Below, one piece after another: positions 449 to 22,973 of a stretch of DNA of 25,690 nucleotides. Source of the stretch: a virus (taxonomy: Duplodnaviria > Caudoviricetes); IMG/VR virus record IMGVR_UViG_3300025066_000136, positions 1-25,690 of that record, one strand, 5' to 3'. Both the position numbers and the translations under genes were made by a program. The notes beneath the pieces are model-generated. The model was not told where the DNA came from. It ran no database searches and saw only the letters and a program-made list of their open reading frames with translations. Each line of letters opens with the position of its first letter. Within the stretch, counting starts at the first letter, position 1.

Positions 449-1123
449 ATGGCACAAAAAAGAATGTTTGATAAAGCAATAGTGGATACAGATAGATTTA
501 TGGATTTATCAATGTCTTCAAAAGCCCTTTATTTCCTTTTAGGAATGGAGGCAGATGATGAAGGATTCGTGTCCTACAAAAAGGTGATGAGGATTCATGG
601 AGGTAACGATGATGACATAAAATCACTACTTATGAAGAACTTCATTATTGGATTCAAATCGGGTGTTGTGGTCATCACAGATTGGAAGAAAAACAACTGG
701 TTAGACACGAGAAGGATAAAACCTACCGAATATCAGGTAGAAAAGCAATTACTGGCTATAAACAAGGATAAAAGCTATGTGCTTAGCGAAGGCTTAGCCA
801 GTATAGAGGAGAGTAGTATAGAGGAGAGTAGTATAGAGGAGAAAAACCCTATCTCTAAATCAAAAAACTTTGATAGATTTTGGGAGGTTTATCCGAAGAA
901 AGAGAACAAGAAGAAATCTCGTGGTTTATGGGAGTCCAAGAAGATGGATGGACACATCAACGAGATTCTGGAGTTCGTTGAGAAAGCCAAAAAAACCGAC
1001 CGTTGGATAGATGGGTATGTTAAAGCTCCAGATGTATTCCTGAGGAATGAGACTTGGGAGGACGATTTGAGTTCGTATAACAATATTAACAAGGAGGTCG
1101 GTCACGAAGTAATAAAAATATAG
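449..1123 (+). CDS. Phage replication initiator (replisome-organizer type)
   Basis: N-terminus MAQKRMF..IVDTDRFMDLSMSSKALYFLLGMEADDEGFV is typical of phage replisome organizers; central repeat linker; C-terminal FDRFWEVYPKK...PDVFLRNETWED domain. Confidence 0.85.
   Translation: MAQKRMFDKAIVDTDRFMDLSMSSKALYFLLGMEADDEGFVSYKKVMRIHGGNDDDIKSLLMKNFIIGFKSGVVVITDWKKNNWLDTRRIKPTEYQVEKQLLAINKDKSYVLSEGLASIEESSIEESSIEEKNPISKSKNFDRFWEVYPKKENKKKSRGLWESKKMDGHINEILEFVEKAKKTDRWIDGYVKAPDVFLRNETWEDDLSSYNNINKEVGHEVIKI
781..842 (+). repeat. Tandem repeats inside the initiator gene (candidate origin iterons)
   Basis: GCTTAGC at 781-787 and 792-798 (11-bp period); AGTATAGAGGAGAGT about x2.9 at 800-842 (15-bp period, encoding SIEES repeats). 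Confidence 0.75.
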
Positions 1124-3061: not shown

Positions 3062-3568
3062 ATGTTTGGAAAAAATAAAAAGAAAGAAGTGGTAGCAGGA
3101 GTAAGTAGGAAGGACTTAGAAAAATCTTTAGAAATATTCGATATTATGAAATCGAGTATATATGCTTTAGATATGACTGTTAAAGGATATCAGGGCAGAG
3201 AATTAACAAAGGATGACATACAAGCTTGTATTGCAGGTGTAGTAGGAGCTGTTCTCGCACTGGATAAGTCTGTTGACCATGATGAATTGGCCAAGATAAG
3301 TAAGGCGGCTGAAGATACTTTGGCTCTCCAGTATCTTGGTGAGATTCCTAGCCTATTTAAAAAGGGTGCATCTGGCAAGACAGTAGGAAGTGAAATTAAA
3401 ATCAAGGGCAATCTTAGTGGGGAAGAACTTAACAGTGCATTAAAGGGCATGAAAGAAGCATTAAAAGAAAAAATGGGAGTTTCTTTTGAGGAAGATACTG
3501 AGGATGAAAAGCCGAAACGAAAGAAAGGAGCAGGTCGTCCGAAGGGTTCAAAGAACAAGAAGAAATAA
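3062..3568 (+). CDS. Hypothetical protein with a C-terminal AT-hook-like motif
   Basis: Ends EEDTEDEKPKRKKGAGRPKGSKNKKK: a GRP core flanked by basic residues. Confidence 0.7.
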   Translation: MFGKNKKKEVVAGVSRKDLEKSLEIFDIMKSSIYALDMTVKGYQGRELTKDDIQACIAGVVGAVLALDKSVDHDELAKISKAAEDTLALQYLGEIPSLFKKGASGKTVGSEIKIKGNLSGEELNSALKGMKEALKEKMGVSFEEDTEDEKPKRKKGAGRPKGSKNKKK

Positions 3569-3595: not shown

Positions 3596-4405
3596 ATGAA
3601 TAGATATACAGATGAGAGAGGTGAGGTATTAGGGGGCAAGGTTATCAGAGATATTATTCTGGCTATAGTAGCACTCGTTCTTGTGTTCGGTTCTATGTTC
3701 ACAGTTCGGGCAGGTGAGATGGGAGTTGTACTCCGATTCGGAGAAATCAAACGAACTGCGGACGAAGGTCTACATTTCAAGATTCCATTGATTGAGGGAG
3801 TAAAGAAAACTAACGTTCGGACTGCAAAGATTGAGCGTGAGGCTAGCTCATCATCTAAGGACTTGCAGGTAGTTACTACACAGGTAGCTCTTAACTACAA
3901 TGTTAATCCAGGTGATGTAGCTGACTTGTACCGACAGGTTGGTAAGAAATATGAGTCTCGTATTATTGACCCAGCTATTCAAGATGCAGTAAAAGCTTCT
4001 ACAGCACAATTCAATGCTGAAGAGTTGATTACGAAACGAGCAGAGGTTAAGGACTTGATGGAAGCTGACCTTACACAACGACTACAATCATCAGGATTAG
4101 TTGTGACAGCGATGAACATTGTTAATTTCCAGTTCTCAGCAGAGTTCGACAACGCTATTGAGCAGAAGGTGACAGCAGAACAGAACGCTCTAAAGGCTGA
4201 GAACGACTTGAAGAGAATTGAGTTTGAGGCACAACAGAGAATTGAAGAAGCGAAAGCCGAAGCAGAAGCTATTAGAATCCAAGCTCAGGCTATTAACTCT
4301 CAAGGTGGTGAGGACTATGTTCAGCTCCAAGCTATTGAGAAATGGGACGGTATTCTACCTGCACAATTCGTACCAGGTTCAGCTATCCCATTCCTAAGTA
4401 TCTAA
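3596..4405 (+). CDS. SPFH / Band 7 / prohibitin family membrane protein
   Basis: N-terminal TM helix, GVVLRFGE, EGLHFKIPLIE, SKDLQ.V, FS.EF..AIEQK..AEQ and an AEAEA coiled coil. Confidence 0.93.
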   Translation: MNRYTDERGEVLGGKVIRDIILAIVALVLVFGSMFTVRAGEMGVVLRFGEIKRTADEGLHFKIPLIEGVKKTNVRTAKIEREASSSSKDLQVVTTQVALNYNVNPGDVADLYRQVGKKYESRIIDPAIQDAVKASTAQFNAEELITKRAEVKDLMEADLTQRLQSSGLVVTAMNIVNFQFSAEFDNAIEQKVTAEQNALKAENDLKRIEFEAQQRIEEAKAEAEAIRIQAQAINSQGGEDYVQLQAIEKWDGILPAQFVPGSAIPFLSI

Positions 4406-4406
4406 C

Positions 4407-4814
4407 ATGCGGAAGAAGATACTGTGGGGCATATTAATCTTACTAGCGATTGGGCACTTTGATTCCATCACTAATGGAGCAAACTACAACCAATCAAAGT
4501 ATGAAATATGGCAAGCAGGTGTAGCGTACCCGCATAGAGCAAAGATGGAGTGTCAGAATCAGGAGTTAGGATTCTCTATCAAAGTTGTGGTCAGAGAATT
4601 AGATGAGGACATAATGGCTCACTGGCTTCCTGGGAAGGATACGATTGAATTTCAGCCAGGAGTTACAGACATAGATACTATCGCTCATGAGGTCTATCAT
4701 GCCACTCAGACTATGAAGCAAAGATATGGTCTAGGGTACGATGAAGAATTATCAGCATATATGCAAGGTGGAATGACAGGATGTGTATATAAATTAATCC
4801 ATAACGTACGATGA
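4407..4814 (+). CDS. Membrane-anchored or exported zincin-like metallopeptidase
   Basis: N-terminal basic plus hydrophobic segment (MRKKILWGILILLAIG); TIAHEVYHA (HEXXH) with a downstream EELSAY third-ligand motif. Confidence 0.7.
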   Translation: MRKKILWGILILLAIGHFDSITNGANYNQSKYEIWQAGVAYPHRAKMECQNQELGFSIKVVVRELDEDIMAHWLPGKDTIEFQPGVTDIDTIAHEVYHATQTMKQRYGLGYDEELSAYMQGGMTGCVYKLIHNVR

Positions 4815-5062
4815 AAAAAGGATTTACATTAATTGAACTACTTATTGTTATCGCCATTGTAGGAATCCTGTCAGCCGTTGCTCTTGCAGGAGTACAGGAT
4901 AGACATGAAGAATATGGTGGTGATTCAAATTATAGAATCTGTGGTAGTGGTAGATGCTATAACGTAGAATATTACACAAAGGAGCAGAACTGTGTGTTCC
5001 TTTCAGAAGAAGAAGTAAGAGTTTGTGGTGATTACAGTATTACCAAGCTGAACGTAGAGTAG
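4811..5062 (+). CDS. Type IV pilin-like protein (class III signal peptide, N-methylation motif), 83 aa
   Basis: MKKG|FTLIELLIVIAIVGILSAVALAG with Glu at +5; short soluble domain with four Cys; ATGA overlap with the peptidase stop. Confidence 0.9.
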   Translation: MKKGFTLIELLIVIAIVGILSAVALAGVQDRHEEYGGDSNYRICGSGRCYNVEYYTKEQNCVFLSEEEVRVCGDYSITKLNVE

Positions 5063-5167
5063 TGCAATCGCCTTTGGCGAACCCTCAATCAGATGTTGTA
5101 TTTTCGTAGCTGATAATATTGTGTCTATTCATGTTAGTTGATTGGGGGTTCCCTGAAGGAGATTGTA
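5063..5167 (+). ncRNA. Long stem-loop RNA element (about 29-bp imperfect stem, about 47-nt loop)
   Basis: 5063-5091 pairs with 5139-5167 (TGCAATC/GATTGTA, GAACCCTCAATCA/TGATTGGGGGTTC); G-U pairs form on the + strand. Confidence 0.55.
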
Positions 5168-5291
5168 ATAGCCCTGAGAGGCTCAAAATTGAGCACCAGA
5201 GAGTTTAGATAGGAATAATGAAGGATGTATCTATCAGGATGGTAGAAGCCCTTAGAACGCAGAAATGAGATTAGTATTAAAATAAGAACAG

Positions 5292-5669
5292 ATGACACCA
5301 AAATCAAGATTATTTAATGAAATAAAGATATACCTACAGCATGGAACCAGGAATCCAGAGAAGAATCCTACTCGTTTTGATGATAAAGCTAGAGTACTAT
5401 TAACATTGTGTGATACACATAAGTTATTCCTTGATAGTATACTGGAGTTTAGACACCTGCATGCTAAAGGTTGGAAGGATATTCTAGGTCGTAGACTTCT
5501 GAAAGAGGTTGAGAGAGACAGAAAGAGAGGAGATGACCTTAGACAACGCAGGAAGAACAAACCTTTGCTCGATGCCTTACAGAAAGAACGCAAAGAGATG
5601 ATGCGGGAGAGACTTGCTTATCAATATCCTGGTGTAGATTTGTCACTACATTGGGCGAACCAAAAATAA
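5292..5669 (+). CDS. Basic hypothetical protein (125 aa)
   Basis: Arg/Lys-rich ORF abutting the RusA-like gene. Confidence 0.7.
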   Translation: MTPKSRLFNEIKIYLQHGTRNPEKNPTRFDDKARVLLTLCDTHKLFLDSILEFRHLHAKGWKDILGRRLLKEVERDRKRGDDLRQRRKNKPLLDALQKERKEMMRERLAYQYPGVDLSLHWANQK

Positions 5670-6008
5670 ATGAAAATAAAAATACCCCTACCACAAAAAA
5701 TATCAACTAATAAAATTTATGCGGGAACACATTGGGCTACCAGAAAGAAACAAGCCGACCTCTATCATGAAAGCCTAATAGAATATCGGAATGAAAAGAT
5801 TACAGAATATCCTGTAGATATAAATTATATTTTTTCTTTCAAAGGTAAGACTTTAGATACAACCAACTGTAGTTACATGGTGAAGATGTTAGAAGATGGA
5901 TTAGTTAAATCAGGAGTGCTAGAAGATGATGACCCTAAGCATGTTTCCTTCACTGGAATCTATTCTCAGAAGGGTAAGAAAGATGAGGTGGAAATTATTA
6001 TCACCTAA
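5670..6008 (+). CDS. rusA: RusA-like Holliday junction resolvase
   Basis: S.N..Y..HW..R N-terminus and LDTTN....VKMLEDGL...GVLEDDD catalytic pattern. Confidence 0.78.
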   Translation: MKIKIPLPQKISTNKIYAGTHWATRKKQADLYHESLIEYRNEKITEYPVDINYIFSFKGKTLDTTNCSYMVKMLEDGLVKSGVLEDDDPKHVSFTGIYSQKGKKDEVEIIIT

Positions 6009-6087: not shown

Positions 6088-6465
6088 ATGTTATCAGAAC
6101 AAGAAAAAAAGAAGTGTAGAATTTGCAAAGAGAAGCCTGGTGAGATGGTCTTATCAACTAACCCCAGTAATGGACATAAGAGATTGTGTTGCCTTGCTTG
6201 TAATGCAAAGAGAATGAAGAAGTATCGTGACGAGAACAAAGATAAAATTAAGATTATTAGTAAGAGATATGAAGTGGCAAATCAAGAAAAGCGTAGAGCT
6301 TGGATGAAGGTTCGTTATGCAGTAGTAACAGGAAAGCTAGTAAAGCCTGATGCGTGTTCTGATTGTGGAACAGAGGGTCAATTAGATGCACATCATGAGG
6401 ATTACTCTAAAGCTTTGGAAGTTACATGGGTATGCCGTAAATGCCATAAAGCGATACATAAATAA
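6088..6465 (+). CDS. HNH-family zinc-finger endonuclease
   Basis: CRIC...CLAC N-terminal finger; CSDC...LDAHHEDYSK.LEV.WVCRKCH C-terminal domain. Confidence 0.82.
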   Translation: MLSEQEKKKCRICKEKPGEMVLSTNPSNGHKRLCCLACNAKRMKKYRDENKDKIKIISKRYEVANQEKRRAWMKVRYAVVTGKLVKPDACSDCGTEGQLDAHHEDYSKALEVTWVCRKCHKAIHK

Positions 6466-7638: not shown

Positions 7639-7703
7639 TTAAAATAGTCTGTATACTATTCGGCACGACCCTTCTTATTGGCTTAATTAGATTGTGTTGG
7701 TGA
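7626..7703 (+). CDS. Possible 25-aa single-TM peptide (MQTLIKIVCILFGTTLLIGLIRLCW)
   Basis: Hydrophobic mini-ORF with AATAAATG context filling the gap; very short. Confidence 0.35.
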   Translation: MQTLIKIVCILFGTTLLIGLIRLCW

Positions 7704-7720
7704 CTATCAGGAGTTATACT
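7692..7720 (+). promoter_or_regulatory. Sigma70-type promoter giving a predicted leaderless mRNA
   Basis: TTGTGT (7692-7697), 17 bp, TATACT (7715-7720); the ATG begins at 7727. Confidence 0.55.
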
Positions 7721-7726
7721 TTTCTT

Positions 7727-8410
7727 ATGAAGGGAATAATATTAGCAGGAGGTCAAGGAACAAGACTACGACCTCTAACATATTTAACAAACAAGCACCT
7801 ATTACCTATCTATGACAAGCAGATGGTTCTATATCCTCTACAAACTCTCAAAGATATGGGAATAGAGGACATTCTTTTAGTCACTGGAGGTGAGCATATC
7901 GGACAATTTGCCGAATTACTAGGAGATGGGTCTGAATATGGGGTGAAATTGACCTATAAAGTCCAGAAAGAAGCTGGTGGTATTGCTCAAGCTCTACTAT
8001 TAGCTGAAGATTTCGTTGACGATGAGTCATTTGCCGTTATTTTGGGAGATAATATCTTTGAATATCCAGTCAAATGTCCTACAGGTTGTGGAATTGTAGT
8101 AAAAGAAGTAGGTGACCCTGAGAGATTTGGTGTATATCAAGACGGAGAGATTGTAGAGAAGCCAGAAAAACCTAAGTCTAATGATGCTGTATTAGGATTA
8201 TATTTCTATACCAGAGAGATTTTTGACTTTATCAAGACTCTGAAACCTTCTGCAAGAGGAGAATTAGAGATTACTTCGGTGAATAATTGGTGTTTAGCTA
8301 ATGTCGAGTCAAATATTTTACGCTATGATGGATTTTGGTCAGATGCTGGTACACTAAAGTCTATCCAGAAGTGTAATGAGTGGGCTTCAACTAGGAATGT
8401 GTTAGAATAA
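7727..8410 (+). CDS. rfbA: Glucose-1-phosphate thymidylyltransferase-like sugar nucleotidyltransferase (short form, 227 aa)
   Basis: MKGIILAGGQGTRLRPLT...NKHLLPIYDK, ILGDNIF, EKP, PSARGELEIT, WSDAGT. Start moved to the ATG at 7727. Confidence 0.92.
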   Translation: MKGIILAGGQGTRLRPLTYLTNKHLLPIYDKQMVLYPLQTLKDMGIEDILLVTGGEHIGQFAELLGDGSEYGVKLTYKVQKEAGGIAQALLLAEDFVDDESFAVILGDNIFEYPVKCPTGCGIVVKEVGDPERFGVYQDGEIVEKPEKPKSNDAVLGLYFYTREIFDFIKTLKPSARGELEITSVNNWCLANVESNILRYDGFWSDAGTLKSIQKCNEWASTRNVLE

Positions 8411-9609: not shown

Positions 9610-9665
9610 AAATCGCAAGTCTAACGACCTGCACAGAATACACCTGTATAGATGTACTCTAGCAG
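9610..9665 (-). promoter_or_regulatory. Intergenic hairpin pair (possible RNA processing or stability element)
   Basis: Stem 9629-9645 / 9650-9665 with two mismatches that are G-U on the minus strand; second hairpin GGUCGU/GCGAUU at about 9611-9629. Confidence 0.5.
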
Positions 9666-9669
9666 ATAA

Positions 9670-9876
9670 CTAGTCAATCAATTCTAAATCAGTTATTTTG
9701 CCGTTGATAATTTCCGCCACCGCTTCTCTGCCCTCCCACGAGGTTGTAATACCATAAGTAAATCCAGCATCATTTTTGGTCTTGGCAGATACATTATTCT
9801 CAAATTCTATCAAGTAATTAGGATTACCATTGACTGAATTCTTTATCCTCTCAATGTTGTGAATTTTCGTTCTCAT
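9670..9876 (-). CDS. Hypothetical protein (68 aa)
   Basis: MRTKIHNIERIKNSVNGNPNY...; packed against the upstream stop. Confidence 0.75.
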   Translation of the reverse strand: MRTKIHNIERIKNSVNGNPNYLIEFENNVSAKTKNDAGFTYGITTSWEGREAVAEIINGKITDLELID

Positions 9877-9877
9877 A

Positions 9878-10027
9878 TTAGTTCAATTTAATGATTGTTA
9901 ATGCTCCTAAAACAAGTAAGATAATTACTATCCTCCATGTTCTTTTCCTGCTCTTACTCCTAAACTCTGGATATAGTTCTGAATGTTGCATGGTTGCTTG
10001 TTGTTTTTCTAGTTGTGAATGTTGCAT
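9878..10027 (-). CDS. Small membrane-anchored protein (49 aa, MQHSQLEKQQATMQHSELYPEFRSKSRKRTWRIVIILLVLGALTIIKLN)
   Basis: Translated by hand; basic patch followed by a TM helix; TAA-N-ATG junctions on both sides. Confidence 0.7.
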   Translation of the reverse strand: MQHSQLEKQQATMQHSELYPEFRSKSRKRTWRIVIILLVLGALTIIKLN

Positions 10028-10028
10028 G

Positions 10029-10187
10029 TTAGTATTCTCTTTTAGTTAGTTCCCTTTCTAATTCTAGTAATTCTCCAATCACATCATCTAATGCACCGTT
10101 TGTGTGTTTTGATAGTTCTGCTATCAATTCCTCATGCCTTTCAATGATGTAATCATCTGTTTTATCCTCTATATTTTTGCTTTCCAT
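10029..10187 (-). CDS. Small acidic helical protein (52 aa, MESKNIEDKTDDY...ELTKREY)
   Basis: Translated by hand; TAACATG junctions on both sides. Confidence 0.7.
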   Translation of the reverse strand: MESKNIEDKTDDYIIERHEELIAELSKHTNGALDDVIGELLELERELTKREY

Positions 10188-10188
10188 G

Positions 10189-10359
10189 TTAATAGTTTTG
10201 TTTAATATATGCTAATAATGCGTCTAACTCCTGTATTACATCAGATGATAGCTCATAATCGCCTTGCATAAGCTCCTTATAATCATCTGCAAAGTAGTTA
10301 TTAAGGTACTTTTTAAGCCACCATAAGTGGTGTAGTAATTGTTTGTCGTTTTTTTCCAT
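10189..10359 (-). CDS. Hypothetical protein (56 aa, MEKNDKQLLHHLWWLKK...)
   Basis: Start moved to the ATG at 10359, just after the upstream stop. Confidence 0.7.
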   Translation of the reverse strand: MEKNDKQLLHHLWWLKKYLNNYFADDYKELMQGDYELSSDVIQELDALLAYIKQNY

Positions 10360-10361
10360 GG

Positions 10362-10553
10362 TTATATTGTTATTTCGTGCTGGCAGTTGTCGCAATGGAT
10401 TGTCATTTCTTCGTCTGCCTCTTGTAAATAGTCTAATAACGCCAGTGTGCTGTTAACAGACTCCACTGCTGTCTTTTCTCCTGCATTTAGAGGGTTGTCT
10501 TTCTTGTAAATGAATATTGCCTCTCTGATTGTGTCTTGTAAGTTGTTTTCCAT
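10362..10553 (-). CDS. Hypothetical protein (63 aa) with a C-terminal CxxC
   Basis: A-rich initiation context; ends IHCDNCQHEITI. Confidence 0.7.
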   Translation of the reverse strand: MENNLQDTIREAIFIYKKDNPLNAGEKTAVESVNSTLALLDYLQEADEEMTIHCDNCQHEITI

Positions 10554-10594
10554 AATTCTATTTATTTAGTTAATAATCACAAAGTAAAAACCGA

Positions 10595-10711
10595 TTAACT
10601 GTTTGCTATCGAAATCAATGTTAGAAAAAAGACAGGTAATCCAATTAGAATTATATCTGTATCTATCATTCCTGCTAACATTATCCCTGCAAATACCACT
10701 ATTGCTCCCAT
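10595..10711 (-). CDS. Very hydrophobic 38-aa peptide (MGAIVVFAGIMLAGMIDTDIILIGLPVFFLTLISIANS)
   Basis: Translated by hand; first ORF after the minus-strand promoter; TAAAATTATG context identical to the 1759 start. Confidence 0.6.
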   Translation of the reverse strand: MGAIVVFAGIMLAGMIDTDIILIGLPVFFLTLISIANS

Positions 10712-10749
10712 AATTTTATATATTTAACTGATAATCTTACTTCCTCTTA

Positions 10750-10822
10750 AACATAGCATAGTTATCTGATAACACAAGCATAAGTTATCCACACCTGTGG
10801 AAAAGTATCAATGTTGTATAAT
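10750..10822. promoter_or_regulatory. Divergent promoter pair around two inverted DnaA boxes
   Basis: Minus strand: TTGTGT (10777-10772), 16 bp, TGc-TATGTT (10755-10750). Palindrome GTTATC-T-GATAAC at 10761-10773. TTATCCACA at 10785-10793 and TGTGGAAAA at 10796-10804. Plus strand: TATAAT at 10817-10822. Confidence 0.7.
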
Positions 10823-10828
10823 TAGATT

Positions 10829-11075
10829 AAGAGTAAAACATATCTGACGGTGAAACCCGCCGTTTCAATCGCCTCATGACTGAGGGTAATGAATAAAGAA
10901 CCGACACCATACGGAACAATAGGATATGTAGATAATAGTTTAATTGAATATAATCTGTTTACAGGGGTTCAAGGTTTACCGTAGAGGATATCAGGTGCAT
11001 AACAGTATTACAGCTATTGGTACTAATCAATAGCTACTGTTAATTAAATCGCTTAGAACTCAATTTTAAGCTTTA
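10829..11075 (+). ncRNA. Candidate structured non-coding RNA
   Basis: Begins just after TATAAT; multibranch fold at 10838-10929 plus hairpins at 11000-11042 and 11051-11071; G-U pairs on the + strand; no ORF. Confidence 0.4.
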
Positions 11076-11327
11076 TATTGTAGTTTAAGGTAAGTTTATC
11101 AAGGGTAATGTGATGTGATATGTGACATTATGCAATCATAGTCTAGTGTTTTATATTGCTTGTATGTCTATTATCACCACACACACCCTACTATAAATCA
11201 CTGAACATTAAAGGGGGGGGTAGTAAGTCAAGTTGAATTGTAAGTTAAAATATATGATTTAGACTATCTACACAGACTAGAAATGAGACAAATGAGATAA
11301 GCTCAGTTAAAAGTTTGGGGAGGGGTG

Positions 11328-11336
11328 TGCTAGAAT
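11328..11336 (+). promoter_or_regulatory. Extended -10 promoter for terL (near-leaderless)
   Basis: TGc-TAGAAT at 11328-11336; ATG at 11346. Confidence 0.5.
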
Positions 11337-11345
11337 ATAAGATAT

Positions 11346-12866
11346 ATGAGTAAAAAACCTATTGATGATTACGAGAAGTTAGGACAAGCTCTTTTAGATG
11401 GTAAAGTTATTAATGAGATTACTTTGAAAGGTAAGCATTATAAGTTTGCTTACACCTATGATGAGTTTTTATCTAAGGCTCTGAGTAATGGTTGGCCTAG
11501 AGAGTTTGTTGATGATGTTGTATGGCCTAAATATCGACCTGTGCAGGCTGAGTTTATCTCTGATATGAAGTCGGACTTTGCGTTAGGGAGTGGGGGGTTC
11601 GGTTCAGGTAAGTCTCTGGCTCTATATGTGAAGCTTATTCTAACTTGTCGTTGTTTTCCGAATAACCGTATCCTTGTAGGTAGAAAGACTCTGTCTGACA
11701 TTGAACGTGCGATTCTACCTGATTTGTTTGATTTGATGCCAGCTAGTTGGTATGAGTACAGGGTGAAGGATGGAGTGATTAATTTTAAGAATGGTAGCCA
11801 GATTATCCTTTTTGGGTTGGATGCGATGCAATCTGGAGGGGTAGCTGATATTAAGAAGGCGGAACAGAAGCTAAAGTCTCTGAACTTAGGAGGTTATTTC
11901 ATTGACCAGTTGGAGGAAATTGAGGAATCAGTGTTTGATGTTCTTAATTCTCGTCTTAGAAGGACTAATGTACCCTTTAGACAAGGAAATATGACTACAA
12001 ACCCTGCTAACTTCTGGGCATATGATGCTTGGGTGGCTAATCCAAGGCCAGGATATGAGTTATATGAGTCTTGTATGATATTTAACCCCTCTTTGCCTTG
12101 GGATTACCTCCGAAAACAGCTTGCTATGCCCGAAGACTACGTAAAAAGGTTCGTTATGGGAGAATGGACTACTGATTTGCTCTTAAAAGGGGCTGTATTT
12201 GCTAAAGACAACATCCAATATCAAGAAAAGATGCTAAAACAACCTCTGATGGTAGAGGAGGAGTGTGAAATCTACGAAATGCCGAAGCCTGGGGTGGAGT
12301 ATAGGATGGGTGTAGACCCTTCTATGGGTGTTGTAGACCCTAGTTCTATTTCGGTGGTGTCTTCTGAGGGTAGGAAGGTAGCTAAATTCAATGGAAAGGT
12401 TCCCGTTACCGCTTTAGCAGAAAGAATCAAATTTTTATACTATAAGTACAATAAACCTCTGATTATTCCAGAAACAAACTGTACGGCAGGTGGTGGATTG
12501 ATACGGGAGATACGAGACCTTAATGTCTATCGGAGGAAGGAGTTAAACTCTAAGTACGATAAGGAATCTGAGAAACTCGGCTTCCATACCTCCTCTTCTT
12601 CAAAGGCTCAACTCATCACCCACTTCAATAGATTGTTAAATGAGAAGGTTCCAAAGATTTATGATAAGAAGACTATTGAGGAGATGAAGACTTTCCTTTG
12701 GAGTGATGAAGCAAAGCAACAGGGGGCGGGGGCAGCCAGAGGATTTCATGATGATGACATCATGTCCACCATGCTCGCATACTGGGATTTCTATCCAGAG
12801 AAGGTAATTGAAAGGCAAGTTGCTAAAGCTCAACCCATTGCAAGAAAGAAGTTTCAATATACGTAA
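11346..12866 (+). CDS. terL: Terminase large subunit
   Basis: Walker A SGGFGSGKS, Walker B-like GYFIDQLEE, motif III TTNP, RNase H-like nuclease motifs GVDPSMG, IIPETN and HDDDIMS; precedes the portal. Confidence 0.93.
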   Translation: MSKKPIDDYEKLGQALLDGKVINEITLKGKHYKFAYTYDEFLSKALSNGWPREFVDDVVWPKYRPVQAEFISDMKSDFALGSGGFGSGKSLALYVKLILTCRCFPNNRILVGRKTLSDIERAILPDLFDLMPASWYEYRVKDGVINFKNGSQIILFGLDAMQSGGVADIKKAEQKLKSLNLGGYFIDQLEEIEESVFDVLNSRLRRTNVPFRQGNMTTNPANFWAYDAWVANPRPGYELYESCMIFNPSLPWDYLRKQLAMPEDYVKRFVMGEWTTDLLLKGAVFAKDNIQYQEKMLKQPLMVEEECEIYEMPKPGVEYRMGVDPSMGVVDPSSISVVSSEGRKVAKFNGKVPVTALAERIKFLYYKYNKPLIIPETNCTAGGGLIREIRDLNVYRRKELNSKYDKESEKLGFHTSSSSKAQLITHFNRLLNEKVPKIYDKKTIEEMKTFLWSDEAKQQGAGAARGFHDDDIMSTMLAYWDFYPEKVIERQVAKAQPIARKKFQYT

Positions 12867-17051: not shown

Positions 17052-18167
17052 ATGAAAATACTGTTTATGACAGATAGCCAGATGTGTTTCCAATCTGGAA
17101 TCTGGTGGCACAGGATAGAGATGCCAACAAGAGCTTTGGAAAAAAGAGGACATGCTGTTAAGCAAGTTGCTATTGGAGCTGAAGTACCAGAAGCATTAAT
17201 GGAGTGGCCAGATGTTGTAATCTTTGGTCGTTCTTATGCAGAGTGCTTTGACCCTGTTAAGATAATGCGTGATTACAAGAAGAGAGGTACACGAGTATTG
17301 TACGATATGGATGATGATTTCTGGGAAGTAGCCGAACATAATCCATCAAGTCTTGTATCTAATGCCCATAAAGACCAATACGAAGGCATGATTAAAGAGG
17401 CTGATGTAGTAATTACTCCAAGTAAGAATCTAGCCAAGAAGTTCAAGAAACACTTCAAGAAGCAGAAGGTAATGATTTGCCCTAACGCTATTGATACCAA
17501 GGAATACAAACCACGACCTAAGCAAATGGATAGACCAGTTATTGGGTACATGGGGGCAGCTTCACACTGGAAAGACCTACAGCTTATTGGAGAAGTAATT
17601 GAAGACCTATCAAAAAAGTACGATTTCTTCTTCACTATCTACGGAATTACAGGTGATGCTCTTGAAGCAGCGTTGTATATGTACAACAAGATGTACAAGA
17701 TGAATCTAAAGCCAGAGCAGAATGAATACTTCAAAGCTGCCTTGGAATTTAGAGACCAACTGAAAGAAACTAAACTCCTACACATACCTTTCATGCCACC
17801 AGAATTACATCCTGGGGTACTTTCACGTTCTGACTTTGACATTGGTATTGCTCCTCTAGAGGATACTGAGTTCAACAAAGGAAAATCTTGTGTGAAATTC
17901 TATGAGTATGCTGGTGTAGATACTGTAACTCTAGCTTCTGACGTAGAACCCTATAAATCAGAGGTTAATTATCGAGCCAAGAATACTAAAAAGGATTGGT
18001 ACAACAAACTAGAGAAGTTACTGGTAGATAAAGACTTTAGAGAGAAGACTCTGGCTGAACAACAGAAGTATGTTCTAGAGAATAGAACTGTTGAAACTGT
18101 AGGTGTTGATTGGGAAGTAGCCTTACAAAATCAAGACGGAATTAAGACTCGTAACCAAAGGAAATAA
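17052..18167 (+). CDS. GT-B fold glycosyltransferase (GT4-like)
   Basis: R..MP..AL, YDMDDDFW, AD.VIT.S..LA, PNAID, IGYMGAASH.KDL and DIGIAPLEDTEFNKGKSCVKFYEY. Confidence 0.88.
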   Translation: MKILFMTDSQMCFQSGIWWHRIEMPTRALEKRGHAVKQVAIGAEVPEALMEWPDVVIFGRSYAECFDPVKIMRDYKKRGTRVLYDMDDDFWEVAEHNPSSLVSNAHKDQYEGMIKEADVVITPSKNLAKKFKKHFKKQKVMICPNAIDTKEYKPRPKQMDRPVIGYMGAASHWKDLQLIGEVIEDLSKKYDFFFTIYGITGDALEAALYMYNKMYKMNLKPEQNEYFKAALEFRDQLKETKLLHIPFMPPELHPGVLSRSDFDIGIAPLEDTEFNKGKSCVKFYEYAGVDTVTLASDVEPYKSEVNYRAKNTKKDWYNKLEKLLVDKDFREKTLAEQQKYVLENRTVETVGVDWEVALQNQDGIKTRNQRK

Positions 18168-18168
18168 T

Positions 18169-19035
18169 ATGAAGGTTCACATCCAAGACCACAATCAAAT
18201 CTTGGGGGACATTCGTAAAGAATTTGAGGTTGTTGAGAAGTTAGATGAAGCTGATGTTCTGTTTATCTGGAACGATGTGTTGTCTGTAGAACGTTCTATC
18301 ATTGATTATGCAAAGAAACGGAAGATTAAGACTTATGTGTTTGAACATGGTAGACGAGGCTCTTCAAAGTATTACCCTCCATTCAACGAAGAAATCTATG
18401 CAGACACGATGTTTGTTTGGGGAGAATTAGACAAAGAGAGGTTAATTGAAGCTGGTAGAAAGAAGAAAAAGATTAAAGTCGTAGGTACCACCGTTTTCTC
18501 TCATCTCAAAGGGAGGAAGGAACATGAAGGTATAAATGTCGTCTTCTGTCCTGAACATTGGGATAAGCCAGTAATTGAGAATCAGCAAGTACGGAAAGAA
18601 TTGAACAAATTGAAGGGAGTAAATATCGTTACTAAGCTGATTGATATGCACGACCCAAGTTTGTTTGATAATCCTATAATCTCAGACCGAAGGAGTCCTG
18701 ACCATCTAGATATTTGTGCTGATGTTCTATCTACCGCAGACCTTGTGGTGGGTGTTGCTGAAGGAACATTTGAGTTAATGGCACAGGCTCTAGACATTCC
18801 AGTTGTGACAATGGAGGAGTGGTCTCCTAAGGCGTTTGGGGGTGATGAGAAGTATGAGGTATACACTCGTCATATATCTCCAGCATCTAAGAGAGCAACG
18901 ATGGATAATCTTCTGGAGGTGATTCAATCACAGCTAGATAATCCAGATGAACTGAAAGAAGAGAGAAAGAAAGCTGTAGAAGACGAGGGAGGAATGAGCT
19001 TAGACACAATCAAATTAATAAAAGAACAATTATGA
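18169..19035 (+). CDS. GT-B fold protein, putative nonulosonate or polyol-phosphate transferase
   Basis: FEHG, D..FVWGE...E.L...G...KIKVVG and ADLVVG..EGTFELMA..LDIPVV resemble capsule-synthesis transferases; a UDP-GlcNAc 2-epimerase-like role is not excluded. Confidence 0.65.
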   Translation: MKVHIQDHNQILGDIRKEFEVVEKLDEADVLFIWNDVLSVERSIIDYAKKRKIKTYVFEHGRRGSSKYYPPFNEEIYADTMFVWGELDKERLIEAGRKKKKIKVVGTTVFSHLKGRKEHEGINVVFCPEHWDKPVIENQQVRKELNKLKGVNIVTKLIDMHDPSLFDNPIISDRRSPDHLDICADVLSTADLVVGVAEGTFELMAQALDIPVVTMEEWSPKAFGGDEKYEVYTRHISPASKRATMDNLLEVIQSQLDNPDELKEERKKAVEDEGGMSLDTIKLIKEQL

Positions 19036-20285
19036 AAATAAAAGATACAATCAGCGAATTATTTAAATTCAACCGATGTCTATTGGGAGAAGGATATGAT
19101 AATGCGATGGAGTATATTAATCAGTTGGTAGGGGTGGAAGTTACATCAGTTCCTAGTGGGACAGAATTAGGAACATGGACTGTACCTGATGAGTGGGTTA
19201 TACGGGATGGTTGGATTAAATTCAATGGAAAGAAGATTGTTGATTACAAGAAGAATCCTCTTTCAGTAGTTGTTGGTTCTATGCCAATCCATAAGAAAGT
19301 TAAAAGGGCTGAGCTATTGAATCATCTCTACTACAATGAAGAGAGACCAGATGATTACAAGTATGAATATAAGTTCTATGACAAGGACTGGGGGTTCACT
19401 ATGCCCTATAACAAAGTTAAGGACGAAGAAGGTAAGGTGATTCTAAAAGAAGGAGAGTATGAGGTATTTGTAGATGCTGAATATAAGCCTGGTAATCTAA
19501 AGTATGGGGTGCATACTATTCCAGGTAAGACAGATAGAGAAATACTTCTATTCGCCCACCTAGACCACCCATATCAGGCTAATGATAATCTATCAGCAGT
19601 AGCTTGTTTATTGGACTTAATTAAGGATGCTAAGAAGGCTAACTTTGACCATACAATCAAGCTAGTATTCTGCCCTGAAACTATTGGTTCTCAAGCGTAC
19701 GGTTATACGGAAGACCTTTCCAAGGTTGATTTTGTAGTGGCCGTAGACATCTGTGGTAATGACAATCCTCTTCTATTCCAGAAGTCATTCGATGCAGACC
19801 ACATTCTCAACAAGATTACTCACAGTGCCTTTCACACACTGGCTCGTCAGTACAGAAAGGGACAATTCCGAAACCTAATTGGTTCAGATGAATATTTCTT
19901 CAATGACCCTAATGTAGGTATCCCAGGAATAATGTTGAGTCGTCATCCATATCCTGAGTATCATACAGATAAAGATACTCCAGATATTATTGATGAGAAG
20001 ATGGTGCATGAGACAGGAGAGGCTATTCTGAAGATGATTGAAGTCTACGAGAATGACTTTATCCCTAAGAGATTAGCAAAAGGTTCTCTGATGAGAAGTC
20101 GTTATGGGTATCAAACTCTAAGTCCACAAACAAACCTAACTCTGGATTACTTCTACTACTCAATAGATGGAAAGAAGACTCTTGCTGAGTTGTGTTGTGA
20201 TTATGGTCTTAGCTTTGACCACATGAAAGAATTATTAGAAAAAATTGAAAAAGATGGAAAACTTGAAAGGGTTAATAATAGCTAA
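19032..20285 (+). CDS. DUF4910/DUF2172 M28 aminopeptidase-like protein with C-terminal winged helix
   Basis: R.L.GEG, SGT....WTVPDEW, HLY...ERPD, Y.Y.FY...WGF, HLDHP..ANDNLS, PETIGS, GSDE..F, YPEYHT..D and DGKKTL. Confidence 0.88.
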   Translation: MKIKDTISELFKFNRCLLGEGYDNAMEYINQLVGVEVTSVPSGTELGTWTVPDEWVIRDGWIKFNGKKIVDYKKNPLSVVVGSMPIHKKVKRAELLNHLYYNEERPDDYKYEYKFYDKDWGFTMPYNKVKDEEGKVILKEGEYEVFVDAEYKPGNLKYGVHTIPGKTDREILLFAHLDHPYQANDNLSAVACLLDLIKDAKKANFDHTIKLVFCPETIGSQAYGYTEDLSKVDFVVAVDICGNDNPLLFQKSFDADHILNKITHSAFHTLARQYRKGQFRNLIGSDEYFFNDPNVGIPGIMLSRHPYPEYHTDKDTPDIIDEKMVHETGEAILKMIEVYENDFIPKRLAKGSLMRSRYGYQTLSPQTNLTLDYFYYSIDGKKTLAELCCDYGLSFDHMKELLEKIEKDGKLERVNNS

Positions 20286-20826
20286 ACAAAATAGCAATAG
20301 GCTTCCAGGCAAAAACACTCTAGACTTTAATGGTGAGCCAATGTTCCTAACGAATGTGAAGAAATGTCTAGAAATCTTTGATGAGGTATACGTCAGTTCT
20401 GACAGTAAGGACATCTTGGCTCTTGCGGAAGAGGTTGGAGCTAAGACAATCATCAGAGGAGAGGAACTTTGTGGTGAGACTCCTAATGTGAAGGTCTATC
20501 AACATGCTATTAAGCATATGGGAGATGTTAGCGGTATTGTTGCAGTTCAGGCTAATAGCCCCACTGTGGAATCAAAGAATATATTACTAGCAAAGTATCT
20601 ATTGGAAGCAGGATTACAGGAAGTAATGACCAGCCATCCTGTGGTACATCAGAAGAAGTATCATGACCAGAACGCTAAGATATATGGTTCGGTATGGGGA
20701 ATGTCAAAGAATAGGCTTGAGCATTACCCAGACCCATATAAGCCTAATCCTGATGCTTTACTGACGGATTATAGTATTGATATAGAGACAATAGATGAGT
20801 ACCAAGAAGCATTAAAAACTAATTAA
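20254..20826 (+). CDS. neuA: Acylneuraminate cytidylyltransferase family (CMP-nonulosonate synthetase-like)
   Basis: IIAKQNSNRLPGKN, FDEVYVSSD, QANSP and SIDIET motifs; adjacent to neuB. Confidence 0.82.
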   Translation: MENLKGLIIAKQNSNRLPGKNTLDFNGEPMFLTNVKKCLEIFDEVYVSSDSKDILALAEEVGAKTIIRGEELCGETPNVKVYQHAIKHMGDVSGIVAVQANSPTVESKNILLAKYLLEAGLQEVMTSHPVVHQKKYHDQNAKIYGSVWGMSKNRLEHYPDPYKPNPDALLTDYSIDIETIDEYQEALKTN

Positions 20827-20834
20827 TAATTACC

Positions 20835-21902
20835 ATGATTAAGATAGGAAATAAAATATTAGGAGAGAAGCCATACATCATTGCCGAGTTTGGCGTGAAT
20901 CATAATGGCTCTTTAAAGAGAGCAAAAGAAGGTATTAGAAAAGCTGCCCATGCTGGTGCAGATGCAATAAAATTCCAGACATATACAGCAGATGAGCTTG
21001 TATGTAAGGGTACGCCCAAATTCTGGGAGTTTGAAGAGGACGAGGAAAAAGACCAACATGAAGCTTATGAAGGTCTAGGGGGAGAACCAATGGAATGGTA
21101 TCCCGAACTGATGAAGTATTGTGAGGAGTGTGGAATTGAGTTCATGACTACTTGTTTTAGTGCTGAAACTGCTGACCACTTCAATGAACTAGGAATGAAA
21201 GCATTTAAGGTAGCATCCTCTGATATGTCTACAATTCCGTATCTAAAGCATATTGCTAGATACAATAAGCCAATCCTTCTATCAACAGGGGCTTCTACAA
21301 TGGAAGAGATTGAGGAGGCTGTACAAGCTATCAAGGAAGAGGGCAACAATCAGATTGTGGTAATGCACTGTACTCTTTGTTACCCAACAATGTATCCTGA
21401 CAGAGAGGTACATTATGAAGATGCTAATTTATCAATTATTCAGACCCTAAAAGCTAAGTTCCCAGATTTAGTGATAGGAATATCTGACCATACTCAGACT
21501 CCATCTTCTTCAGTTATAGCTTACGCTATGGGAGCTGATGTTATTGAGAAACACTACACAGTAGACAAGACACTGGGTAAGTCAGCCGACCACTGGTTCT
21601 CAGTTGACCCCGAAGAATTGAAAGAGATTGTAGATAATTGTAAAGAAGTCCAGACACTCAAAGGTACGGCAGAGAAGAAAGTATTTGACTGTGAGAAAGA
21701 AACTCGCTTACACGACAAACGGAGTATTGTATTGAAAGTAGATGTTAAGGAGGGAGATGCAATCACAGAAGATATGTTGACCTATAAGAGACCAGGAACA
21801 GGTATCTGGCCATCAGAGTTAGATGAAGTAATTGGTTCAACAGCTTCTGAAGATATTAATAGAGATAATCCACTACAATGGCAGCAACTAAAAAGGAAAT
21901 AA
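20835..21902 (+). CDS. neuB: N-acetylneuraminate/nonulosonate synthase with C-terminal SAF domain
   Basis: PYIIAEFGVNHNG, GADAIKFQTY, FKVASSD, LSTGASTMEEI, MHCT..YP, GISDHT, IEKHYT, DH.FS and KRPGTGI. Confidence 0.95.
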   Translation: MIKIGNKILGEKPYIIAEFGVNHNGSLKRAKEGIRKAAHAGADAIKFQTYTADELVCKGTPKFWEFEEDEEKDQHEAYEGLGGEPMEWYPELMKYCEECGIEFMTTCFSAETADHFNELGMKAFKVASSDMSTIPYLKHIARYNKPILLSTGASTMEEIEEAVQAIKEEGNNQIVVMHCTLCYPTMYPDREVHYEDANLSIIQTLKAKFPDLVIGISDHTQTPSSSVIAYAMGADVIEKHYTVDKTLGKSADHWFSVDPEELKEIVDNCKEVQTLKGTAEKKVFDCEKETRLHDKRSIVLKVDVKEGDAITEDMLTYKRPGTGIWPSELDEVIGSTASEDINRDNPLQWQQLKRK

Positions 21903-22450
21903 TGAAAGACCTTAAAGATGTTATGGCCGTCTTTAAGAGATTTGGAGTAGAGGCCTATCTATCTTATGGAGCAGTTCTTGGAGCTGTGCGAGATGGAGAC
22001 TTTATCCCCTGGGATGATGACATTGATATTGATGTTATAGACGATATTCCTTTTGAGGTTAGAAAGGCAATAGGTTGGGCACTATATGATATTGGTTTTA
22101 ATCCCCAACCAATCTCTTTCAATATCTTTGGAAGGATGGAGTTAGCTGAATTAGGGTACAACGGAGATGCTGAAACAGGAATCATTGTTTGTGAGAGAAA
22201 CTTCCCATTTTCAATATTCTTCTATAGGGAAGAGGGAGATGAAATGGTTTGTACTCCGAAGGTAGGTTGTAGAAAGCTCCTTAGCGTACCTACTAAGTTC
22301 TACAAGAAACCTGATACAGTTAAACTACATAGGACTAAGTTCAAGACACCAGGCCCTGTTAAAGAGTATCTGACCTACGTCTATGATGACTGGAAAGAAC
22401 CAGTTAAAGATTATCACGCACCTAAATACGAAGACCGACATGCAAACTAA
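21902..22450 (+). CDS. LicD-family nucleotidyltransferase-fold phosphotransferase
   Basis: YGAVLGAVRDGDFIPWDDDIDI and P...KEYLT.VY.DWK.P; start set at the TAATG overlap with neuB. Confidence 0.88.
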   Translation: MKDLKDVMAVFKRFGVEAYLSYGAVLGAVRDGDFIPWDDDIDIDVIDDIPFEVRKAIGWALYDIGFNPQPISFNIFGRMELAELGYNGDAETGIIVCERNFPFSIFFYREEGDEMVCTPKVGCRKLLSVPTKFYKKPDTVKLHRTKFKTPGPVKEYLTYVYDDWKEPVKDYHAPKYEDRHAN

Positions 22451-22973
22451 ACATTGGAAAGATTTTTACGAATCACATAAAGAAACACAAGGAGCTAGTT
22501 CTTTTGCTAAGTTCACCTTACGTCTAATGAGAGATAGTGGAGGGAAGGTTGTAGACCTCGGCTCAGGAGACGGGCGAGACACTAACTTCTTTAAGAAGTG
22601 GGATATAGACGTTACGCCAGTTGATATTGCTACGACAGGAGTATCAGTAAAGGATTATATGAAAGACAATTCATCTCCGAAGTATGTATATACCAGATTC
22701 TTCTGGCATGCTATCTCCAGAGAAGAACAGCTAGCTATATTAGAATGGGCTTCTGATTACGTCTTAATTGAAGCCAGAACTACAGATGATGAGGGAAGGA
22801 CAAAGATATATGATGACCACAACAGAAACTATGTTGATGTTAATAAATTAGTTAGTGACCTGAAGTATCATGGCTTTGAAATAAGGTATCTGGCAGAAGG
22901 TACTAACTTCTCTAAGATGGAAGATGAAGACCCTCATCTTGTAAGAGTAGTAGCTCATAAAACAAAGAAGTAG
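22440..22973 (+). CDS. Class I SAM-dependent methyltransferase
   Basis: HWKDFY, SSFAKF, VVDLGSGDGRDTNFF, YTRFFWHAI, IEART and H.R.YV; start moved to the ATG at 22440. Confidence 0.82.
   Translation: MQTKHWKDFYESHKETQGASSFAKFTLRLMRDSGGKVVDLGSGDGRDTNFFKKWDIDVTPVDIATTGVSVKDYMKDNSSPKYVYTRFFWHAISREEQLAILEWASDYVLIEARTTDDEGRTKIYDDHNRNYVDVNKLVSDLKYHGFEIRYLAEGTNFSKMEDEDPHLVRVVAHKTKK

Follow-up and report, generated by a model that had tools for sequence, protein, structure and literature searches.

Cages built from SPFH proteins (prohibitin and HflK/HflC) pair with the membrane proteases m-AAA and FtsH, and stomatins pair with NfeD in operons; to our knowledge, no SPFH protein of a phage has an assigned function. 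Among phage proteins directed at type IV pili, Tip of a Pseudomonas phage mediates superinfection exclusion. Phage-borne pilins have also been reported: the abstract and section 17 of a recent account describe a prophage FimU (P-FimU) that becomes part of the pilus and keeps phages from adsorbing, as well as a 60-residue truncated PilA (P-PilA) in six lytic Pseudomonas phages, for which insertion into the pilus or its obstruction was suggested (Sztanko et al., Cell Rep 2026, PMC12952977). SPFH proteins themselves are abundant in phages, ranking with the commonest of their membrane proteins, and the available portions of a preprint only propose general membrane roles for them (bioRxiv 10.64898/2026.10.24.761521). 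Here, we analyzed a virus record of 25,690 bases (IMGVR_UViG_3300025066_000136; completeness of 61% according to CheckV), the whole of which is referred to as the window. Its open reading frames (ORFs), read directly from the sequence, include three coupled plus-strand genes at positions 3596 to 5062, which encode a prohibitin-type SPFH protein, a small protein with a HEXXH motif, and a very short pilin-like protein, the mini-pilin. The pairing of the first and last of these genes proved to be a recurrent feature of viral genomes.

Like P-FimU and P-PilA, the mini-pilin is the product of a phage gene with a type IV pilin N terminus, and a block of pilus-dependent superinfection was proposed for those proteins as well (abstract and section 17 of PMC12952977). 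The truncated P-PilA class is of about the same size as the mini-pilin and keeps only the N-terminal helix. In contrast, P-FimU is a full-length minor pilin with a demonstrated function, whereas the mini-pilin lacks the pilin globular domain and its role is a predicted one. The mini-pilin also has a four-cysteine mini-domain as its head, which distinguishes it from both; the hosts of P-FimU and P-PilA are Pseudomonas, whereas those of the window are likely Patescibacteria; and neither the abstract nor section 17 of that account mentions an SPFH partner. Because FimU and the truncated PilA are already in print, the claim that the mini-pilin is the first of its kind is weakened. Aqs1 and Zip of Pseudomonas phages resemble the proposed role of the window's operon in that they are early or moron genes that switch off type IV pilus function. 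However, Aqs1, Zip, and Tip are cytoplasmic or membrane inhibitors of PilB, PilZ, or PilC and are not known to have a pilin motif or an SPFH partner. A literature search that left most subscription journals outside its reach returned no description of a phage SPFH-pilin pair or of pilins in Patescibacteria phages, and a searched preprint on phages of the candidate phyla radiation mentions pili only as host features. The new element is that mini-pilins form a defined class whose genes keep a fixed place after a phage prohibitin gene, to which the window adds a third component from an unnamed HEXXH family.

The association was evaluated in 27 viral loci retrieved by a pilin search and in the best 80 of 186 viral and the best 80 of 354 cellular SPFH relatives, for which pilin-motif ORFs were sought in the 3-kb flanks on both strands (approximately 6 kb per locus). 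An SPFH relative (27 to 57% identical to that of the window) lay directly upstream of the pilin gene in 9 of the 27 pilin-derived loci, ending 0 to 920 nucleotides (nt) 5' of the pilin start. Conversely, 15 of the 80 viral SPFH loci contained a same-strand pilin-motif ORF (42 to 119 amino acids [aa]) downstream of the SPFH gene; the distance did not exceed about 260 nt in 13 cases, and a relaxed motif added one locus (L041; loci are designated by L numbers), for 16 of 80. No pilin-motif ORF was found upstream of SPFH or on the other strand in any of the 80 viral loci, and none was found within 3 kb of SPFH in the 80 cellular loci; the four cellular regions that were inspected looked like ordinary chromosomal neighborhoods. 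A rough classification of the downstream ORFs, which passes over small genes, did not enter these counts. Several of the linked ORFs start 2 nt past the SPFH stop codon or overlap it (spacing of −3 to +2 nt). The linked pilins were all small (36 to 104 aa; 10 ORFs in 9 of the pilin-derived loci), whereas unlinked pilin ORFs in the same 27 loci were mostly 114 to 326 aa long, with 5 of 21 being 104 aa or shorter. The SPFH-mini-pilin pairing is thus not due to chance but is recurrent, position specific, and phage specific.

The pairing also occurs with a distant SPFH type, 27 to 29% identical to that of the window (L013 and L026). Pilin-linked proteins were scattered over a FastTree phylogeny with 166 SPFH rows: the 21 viral rows concerned required 16 state changes, at least 9 of which were forced by well-supported branches; shuffling gave a mean of 20.1 changes, and 2 of 500 shuffles were as low as the observed value. 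These changes indicate, on phylogenetic grounds, that the pairing is not one inherited block and that it has been gained or lost many times. Among isolated phages, SPFH relatives occurred in 62 records, and the pilin query retrieved only 4 records (Synechococcus and Delftia phages), matched by the N terminus alone.

The HEXXH gene is a much less constant companion. Its homolog follows SPFH in L192 (hidden Markov model [HMM] E value of 7.4e-34), with no pilin gene after it, and a truncated remnant of 57 aa with a stop codon just upstream was detected at positions 5426 to 5599 of L005, which is on the same contig as L092 (E value of 2.9e-8). The remnant lies approximately 260 nt downstream of an SPFH-linked mini-pilin and may be a decaying gene. 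The HEXXH gene was not found in the remaining SPFH loci examined, and eight further viral matches were cousins in unrelated contexts, without the signal or the Cys pair. The three-gene module is thus a rare arrangement of a commoner SPFH-pilin two-gene core. The linkage of all three genes on which the first-pass annotation built is supported for the SPFH-pilin pair but only weakly for the HEXXH gene, of which one other intact case and one remnant were seen. A commoner neighbor is a family of helical proteins of 58 to 75 aa with an MFGN-type start and a DILGK-type end, encoded near SPFH or between SPFH and the pilin in eight viral contigs (Table 1); it was absent from the 80 cellular SPFH loci and had no PHROG match. 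The window ORF at positions 3062 to 3568 shares an MFGK start and was considered as a member but was rejected, as the family HMM did not match it at an E value of ≤0.01. L027 offers another context: at positions 4259 to 5165, where no SPFH gene is nearby, a membrane-anchored protein of 255 aa has a lytic-transglycosylase-like motif, and its end is overlapped by a mini-pilin of 54 aa.

The 83-aa mini-pilin matched the N_methyl family PF07963 (E value of 8.4e-9; 35.1 bits against a cutoff of 21.2), TIGR02532 (E value of 4.4e-10; 38.9 bits against a cutoff of 16.3), and the PHROG family phrog_3433, annotated as pilin (E value of 2.8e-8). It begins with a class III signal, MKKG/FTLIE, which is followed by a hydrophobic stretch. 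Mature pilins are typically longer than 110 aa, with an alpha1-C helix and a globular alpha-beta head; the predicted mature form of the mini-pilin has 79 aa, of which the head accounts for about 55, and the globular head of pilins is missing. Full-length pilin equivalog models scored far below their cutoffs and aligned only with residues 2 to 32. Because the alignments are confined to these first 30 or so residues, the mini-pilin is, as judged from its sequence, a pilin N terminus that lacks the pilin body.

In an alignment of 16 SPFH-linked small proteins (A6), G4, F5, I8, and E9 were conserved in at least 90% of the rows. The near-invariance of G−1, F+1, and E+5 (mature numbering) extends over very different phages, with GC contents of 0.30 to 0.65, and a buried glutamate would not be expected of a plain membrane anchor; we count this in favor of a pilin role. 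Many of the linked proteins also retain the start of alpha1-C (an ASLNSAR-type stretch), and they look as if they had been cut from host major pilins. All four head cysteines are invariant in the window, L002, and L029, and the window's head matches that of L002 at 37/46 residues and that of L029 at 34/45 (76 to 80%), compared with 149/265 (56%) for the SPFH protein. Heads from different clades show no relationship, and some proteins are nearly headless (36 to 43 aa). A word-based search with the head of the window's mini-pilin retrieved only itself, and an Atlas search gave nothing usable (best feature score of 0.75, only short beta-rich structural rows, and no known fold).

Two side observations concern these small proteins. 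Those that follow SPFH in L029 and L095 look like prepilin signals that have decayed into plain anchors. In addition, several other contigs from marine runs match the window only at positions 4817 to 4850 (34 bases, the part encoding GFTLIELL) and then diverge; at the DNA level, this stretch is therefore common to further pilin genes of those samples.

The SPFH protein matched Pfam family PF01145 over residues 36 to 223 (E value of 2.3e-36; 125.9 bits against a cutoff of 23.6) and phrog_200 (E value of 5.7e-44). Its closest solved relatives are prohibitin-2 (8rrh_B; E value of 3.9e-29, residues 30 to 248) and prohibitin-1 (E value of 1.8e-20), with HflK next (7vhp_E; E value of 6.5e-11). Scores against the HflK/HflC equivalogs of NCBIfam were below the cutoffs (TIGR01932, 59 bits against 134.4; TIGR01933, 54.9 bits against 159.4). 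Family membership is also apparent from the combination of an SPFH domain with an N-terminal transmembrane segment, and a hydrophobic segment of this kind was present in 160 of 166 family members. Lys and Arg residues around the segment averaged 2.93 in the N-terminal flank and 1.74 in the C-terminal flank, with more on the N-terminal side in 91 members and more on the C-terminal side in 28. The corresponding domains of prohibitin and HflK/HflC face the intermembrane space or the periplasm. From the charge bias and this topology, we infer a placement, suggested rather than firm, of the SPFH domain outside the cell membrane and of the N terminus inside.

The window resembles the prohibitin/HflKC and stomatin-NfeD systems in that its SPFH protein has an N-terminal anchor and its gene lies beside genes for a putative protease and a small membrane protein. 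However, the neighbor is a 135-aa HEXXH protein rather than an AAA+ protease or a ClpP-like NfeD; the SPFH protein is below the HflK/HflC cutoffs; there is no NfeD domain; and the context is that of a phage. Neither of the two proteins downstream of SPFH matched NfeD (PF01957) at E values up to 1.

The HEXXH protein has a hydrophobic, signal-like N terminus. It had no Pfam match (and none of 42 family members matched Pfam convincingly), and its match to phrog_1365 was weak (E value of 2.1e-4). An exhaustive HMMER search of 1.84 billion representatives gave 45 matches at an E value of ≤1e-3, mostly of 100 to 170 aa with the same kind of N terminus; close relatives were not retrieved by a word-based search, by a single-protein search of viral contigs, or by a sequence search of the PDB. 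C49, H94, E95, H98, A117, G121, and C126 were invariant in the family alignment of 42 rows (A4). The three residues of the zincin motif, present in all 42 rows, lie in a predicted helix, and a Glu/His column about 16 to 18 residues after HExxH provides a candidate third ligand (E114 is nearly invariant in alignment A5). An AlphaFold2 model based on A4 had a predicted local distance difference test (pLDDT) score of 91.4 and comprised an N-terminal helix, five strands, the HExxH helix, and a final helix; a single-sequence model was rejected (pLDDT of 57), its Foldseek rows being meaningless.

With the better model, a Foldseek search of the pdb database gave no match at an E value of ≤1e-3. The best weak rows were 6cyy (E value of 0.027), selecase, IrrE, and proabylysin. 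In the VIA-wide comparison, jannalysin (Z score of 4.1), ArdC (4.1), and PprI (4.3) fell within a range of 4.1 to 4.5, below the noise level of about 5; CapP was also among the weak fold rows, and unrelated folds scored likewise. The Atlas leads were M78, SprT, and ArdC only. The minigluzincins (selecase, proabylysin, and projannalysin) and the M78-type proteins ImmA/IrrE, the best weak structural neighbors, are similar in size, carry HExxH on a helix with a Glu or His about 16 to 18 residues on in the next helix, and have a beta-sheet before the motif. The likeness does not extend to a significant sequence or fold match, and the HEXXH family differs from them in its N-terminal signal or anchor and two invariant cysteines. 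Because of this N terminus and these cysteines, the protein is likely extracytoplasmic, either exported or anchored. We regard it as a zincin-like protein of an unnamed family and a putative peptidase. The transmembrane and HEXXH parts of its earlier description as a peptidase agree with the hydrophobic N terminus, with HEVYH, and with the invariant HExxH of the 42 rows; no significant match to a known peptidase family or fold was obtained.

Direct reading confirmed the three ORFs, their motifs, the 1-nt spacing, and the ATGA overlap that the first-pass annotation had reported, and its placement of the operon in an early or middle region without other pilus genes also stood. Its interpretation, a pilus-hijacking module that would jam or cap host pili or change attachment, is supported in part. 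The neighbors are replication genes (Table 1), and the operon sits in the early/replication region, which we count in favor of pilus interference. Pfam scans of 30 further window ORFs revealed no other pilus genes, and the N_methyl family had a single match in the whole record. A promoter and terminator scan gave results at chance level, Rfam families were unmatched, and no tRNA was found.

Table 1. Features of the operon and its surroundings in the window, and members of the helical protein family in other viral loci
Feature	Record	Position	Strand	Basis or context
Prohibitin-family SPFH (Band 7) membrane protein, 269 aa	Window	3596..4405	+	PF01145, phrog_200
N-terminal transmembrane segment of SPFH protein (about residues 19-37)	Window	3650..3706	+	Best 19-residue hydrophobic window
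SPFH/HEXXH gene junction, TAA-C-ATG, 1-nt spacer	Window	4403..4409	+	Read from sequence
Signal-anchored small HEXXH (zincin-like) protein, 135 aa, unnamed family	Window	4407..4814	+	HMMER family, alignment A4
HEVYH motif, residues 94-98, in predicted helix 89-106	Window	4686..4700	+	Sequence, alignment, AlphaFold2 model
HEXXH stop/pilin start overlap, ATGA	Window	4811..4814	+	Read from sequence
Mini-pilin gene, 83 aa	Window	4811..5062	+	PF07963, TIGR02532, phrog_3433
Prepilin-type (class III) leader MKKG; PilD predicted to cleave after G4	Window	4811..4822	+	Sequence
Hydrophobic alpha1-N segment F5-V28 with E9 (mature E+5)	Window	4823..4894	+	Alignment A6
Head of about 55 aa with C44, C49, C61, C72; no pilin alpha-beta domain	Window	4895..5059	+	
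DnaD-like helicase loader	Window	449-1123		Upstream flank of operon
RusA-like resolvase	Window	5670-6008		Downstream flank of operon
HNH endonuclease	Window	6088-6465		Beside RusA-like resolvase
Terminase	Window	11346-12866		Operon lies upstream of it and of portal, SU10-type head, and adaptor
Helical family member	L002	1850-2053		
Helical family member	L029	3770-3973		
Helical family member	L003	1106-1312		
Helical family member	L055	3768-3944		
Helical family member	L100	3818-4024		
Helical family member	L004	5158-5352		
Helical family member	L060	175-402		
Helical family member	L085	2638-2853		

Other parts of the window showed features of their own. A long imperfect hairpin (positions 5063 to 5170) lies directly 3' of the pilin stop codon, inside the 229-nt gap before the next gene; its fold z-score was only −1.9, and it had no Rfam or terminator match. 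Positions 9644 to 11345 (about 1.7 kb), just 5' of the terminase gene and adjoining two minus-strand ORFs, contain no ORF of 70 aa or longer, and the GC and AT skews are reversed around this region. A plus-strand cluster of the sugar-nucleotide/nonulosonic-acid type (positions 17052 to 22973) interrupts the structural module: the gene for the major head protein lies on one side of it and that for the SU10-type adaptor on the other. The cluster encodes a GT4-like glycosyltransferase, Epimerase_2, DUF4910/DUF2172/M28, CTP_transf_3, NeuB with SAF (E value of 3.4e-74), LicD, and a methyltransferase, and an NTP_transferase at positions 7694 to 8410 was grouped with it. The cluster could serve the glycosylation of the virion or of a host surface structure.

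Clues about the host came from several sources. Among the best 80 of 354 cellular SPFH relatives, the closest were from metagenome-assembled genomes (MAGs) of Saccharibacteria (59 to 62% identity), followed by other Patescibacteria, some DPANN archaea, and MAGs labeled Gammaproteobacteria. The first 14 residues of the mini-pilin are identical to those of a 152-aa pilin in the Saccharibacteria MAG that carries the closest cellular SPFH protein. All three candidate host-type MAGs had five to nine pilin matches each, in open frames of 123 to 598 aa, together with the prepilin peptidase (Peptidase_A24/PilD, PF01478). Capsid relatives with 26 to 34% identity were present in 4 of 401 sampled Patescibacteria genomes. 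A host of the Saccharibacteria type, as guessed earlier, is consistent with the closest cellular SPFH proteins and with the host-type pilins and the PilD of those genomes. Viral and cellular SPFH proteins are interleaved on the tree (21 changes among 166 rows), which suggests either that ultrasmall cells and their viruses have exchanged these genes repeatedly or that viral contigs were binned into MAGs. The stretch was also found, in pieces and nearly without differences, in contigs of four other runs labeled marine metagenome, which shows its presence only; no RNA run was listed as carrying it.

The best explanation for the operon, which we put forward tentatively and at somewhat short of even confidence, is that a PilD-processed mini-pilin interferes with host pili and works with the SPFH protein. 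The host prepilin peptidase is predicted to cut the mini-pilin, which would then likely mix with the pilins stored in the membrane and upset the type IV pili of the host or give them a different surface, with an effect of the superinfection exclusion type. The SPFH protein would likely be its membrane partner. All three proteins would probably face outward from the cell membrane, given that the SPFH topology is like that of prohibitin and HflKC, that the mini-pilin has a class III anchor, and that the HEXXH protein has a signal-like N terminus and two invariant cysteines. As the mini-pilin keeps only the filament-core helix and a tiny head, it might poison assembly or become part of the filament while lacking the usual surface. 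The HEXXH protein would be an optional accessory that may act as a peptidase within the SPFH assembly or next to it.

Several observations weigh against this explanation. No pilin gene was found in 64 to 65 of the 80 viral SPFH loci, and a pilin gene after SPFH was absent in the three isolated or complete phages inspected (nACB2, CSP3, and ctpbd312). L029 is the closest phage relative by SPFH (63%), and the small protein encoded after its SPFH gene (positions 3970 to 4224) keeps the anchor and the head (34/45 identical), although the G/F site and E5 are gone. Similarly, the protein encoded after SPFH in L095 (positions 3863 to 4075) is colinear with the pilin-type proteins of L008 (E value of 1e-8) and L055 (E value of 1e-4) but has lost the motif. 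Because anchor and head are kept in both cases, the function can apparently persist without the prepilin motif, and cleavage as a pilin may be dispensable. The head is also the best-conserved part in the clade to which the window belongs; its higher identity relative to SPFH argues that it has a constrained job of its own, and this points to a specific head partner rather than a headless filler. The pilin, the HEXXH protein, and the upstream ORF had no match among the PADLOC models, and the SPFH protein alone matched one weakly (PDC-M11A; E value of 9.6e-4, 16.1 bits). Finally, the host is likely to be a member of the Patescibacteria, a placement that we infer indirectly from the nearest cellular SPFH proteins, the matching pilin N termini and PilD, and the capsid relatives.

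The main rival is an SPFH-centered membrane module, which we consider possible if on the doubtful side. The phage prohibitin homolog would build a cage or microdomain that stabilizes or reorganizes the membrane during infection, and pili would not be the target; the small protein would be a single-pass partner in an NfeD-like role, for which the borrowed class III signal would serve as an N-in/C-out anchor. Interchangeable anchors are what L029 and L095 display, as head and SPFH adjacency persist there without the prepilin motif, and the greater conservation of the head than of SPFH within the clade and the very tight spacing in several loci also fit this module. The helical family is a second phage-only small partner, and SPFH proteins are common in phages, with roles in membrane management proposed in the portions of the preprint cited above (bioRxiv 10.64898/2026.10.24.761521). 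However, a plain anchor needs none of the residues G−1, F+1, and E+5 that are kept in at least 90% of the 16 linked proteins. Heads that are unrelated between clades, some of them in proteins of 36 to 43 aa, make head binding to a conserved SPFH surface unlikely, and no NfeD family was found among the operon proteins.

Alternatively, the SPFH protein could act as HflK/HflC or prohibitin do on a host protease of the FtsH type, to protect phage proteins or to steer the lysis-lysogeny decision, with the pilin and the HEXXH protein as passengers. HflKC has a role in the turnover of lambda CII. Prohibitins and HflK are the closest solved relatives, the HflK and HflC models of NCBIfam do match (albeit below their cutoffs), and a homolog is annotated as a lysogenization protein in one public phage record. 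This account nevertheless leaves the position-specific, repeatedly arising pilin gene and its translational coupling unexplained, and no integrase or repressor was identified in the window, a contig that is only 61% complete; we judge it distinctly improbable. We see no better prospects for the idea that the site 3' of SPFH is an insertion hot spot that gathers host-captured pilin fragments as independent morons without a joint function. Gene content downstream of SPFH is indeed highly variable, the pilin N termini look host derived, and mini-pilins exist without SPFH (L008, L025, and L027). On the other hand, the 15 motif ORFs in the 80 loci were all on the same strand and directly after SPFH, with none elsewhere in the approximately 6 kb of two-stranded flank; pilin start codons lie on or right next to the SPFH stop codon; divergent phages have kept the reading frames open and the motifs conserved; and the head is 76 to 80% identical where SPFH is 56% identical. 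A function in lysis timing, with the small protein as a holin- or antiholin-like factor organized by SPFH, is highly improbable. In its favor, the protein is small and consists of a single hydrophobic helix followed by a charged tail, L002 and L111 have genes resembling cell-wall hydrolases close by on the opposite strand, and the L027 mini-pilin overlaps an SLT-like gene. However, the window operon lies among replication genes with no endolysin identified nearby, and a conserved prepilin motif is not a holin feature.

The SPFH-mini-pilin pairing bears on several questions about phages and their hosts. A recurrent, phage-only partner gene provides a concrete handle on the function of phage SPFH proteins. 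Truncated phage pilins, lately noted but unexplained, are placed here in a larger, defined class with a fixed genomic partner, and the HEXXH family, unnamed in Pfam, is a candidate new family of small exported metallopeptidases. An unlikely but far-reaching extension of pilus interference is that phages of Patescibacteria possess a dedicated extracytoplasmic device for pilus takeover, in which a prohibitin-type cage and a mini- or headless pilin, sometimes with an exported mini-zincin, would trap, cap, or degrade the host pilin pool and thereby switch off or re-dress the pili. If this is true, phage SPFH proteins would gain their first assigned function, pilus takeover, by way of a pairing gained or retained on at least nine separate occasions in the SPFH tree, and the device would disrupt pili on which attachment and DNA uptake by episymbionts, as well as the entry of phages into them, depend. 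The type IV pili of Patescibacteria mediate attachment to their bacterial hosts. If the hosts of these phages are Patescibacteria, a viral module directed at pili would bear on both competition among phages and episymbiosis.

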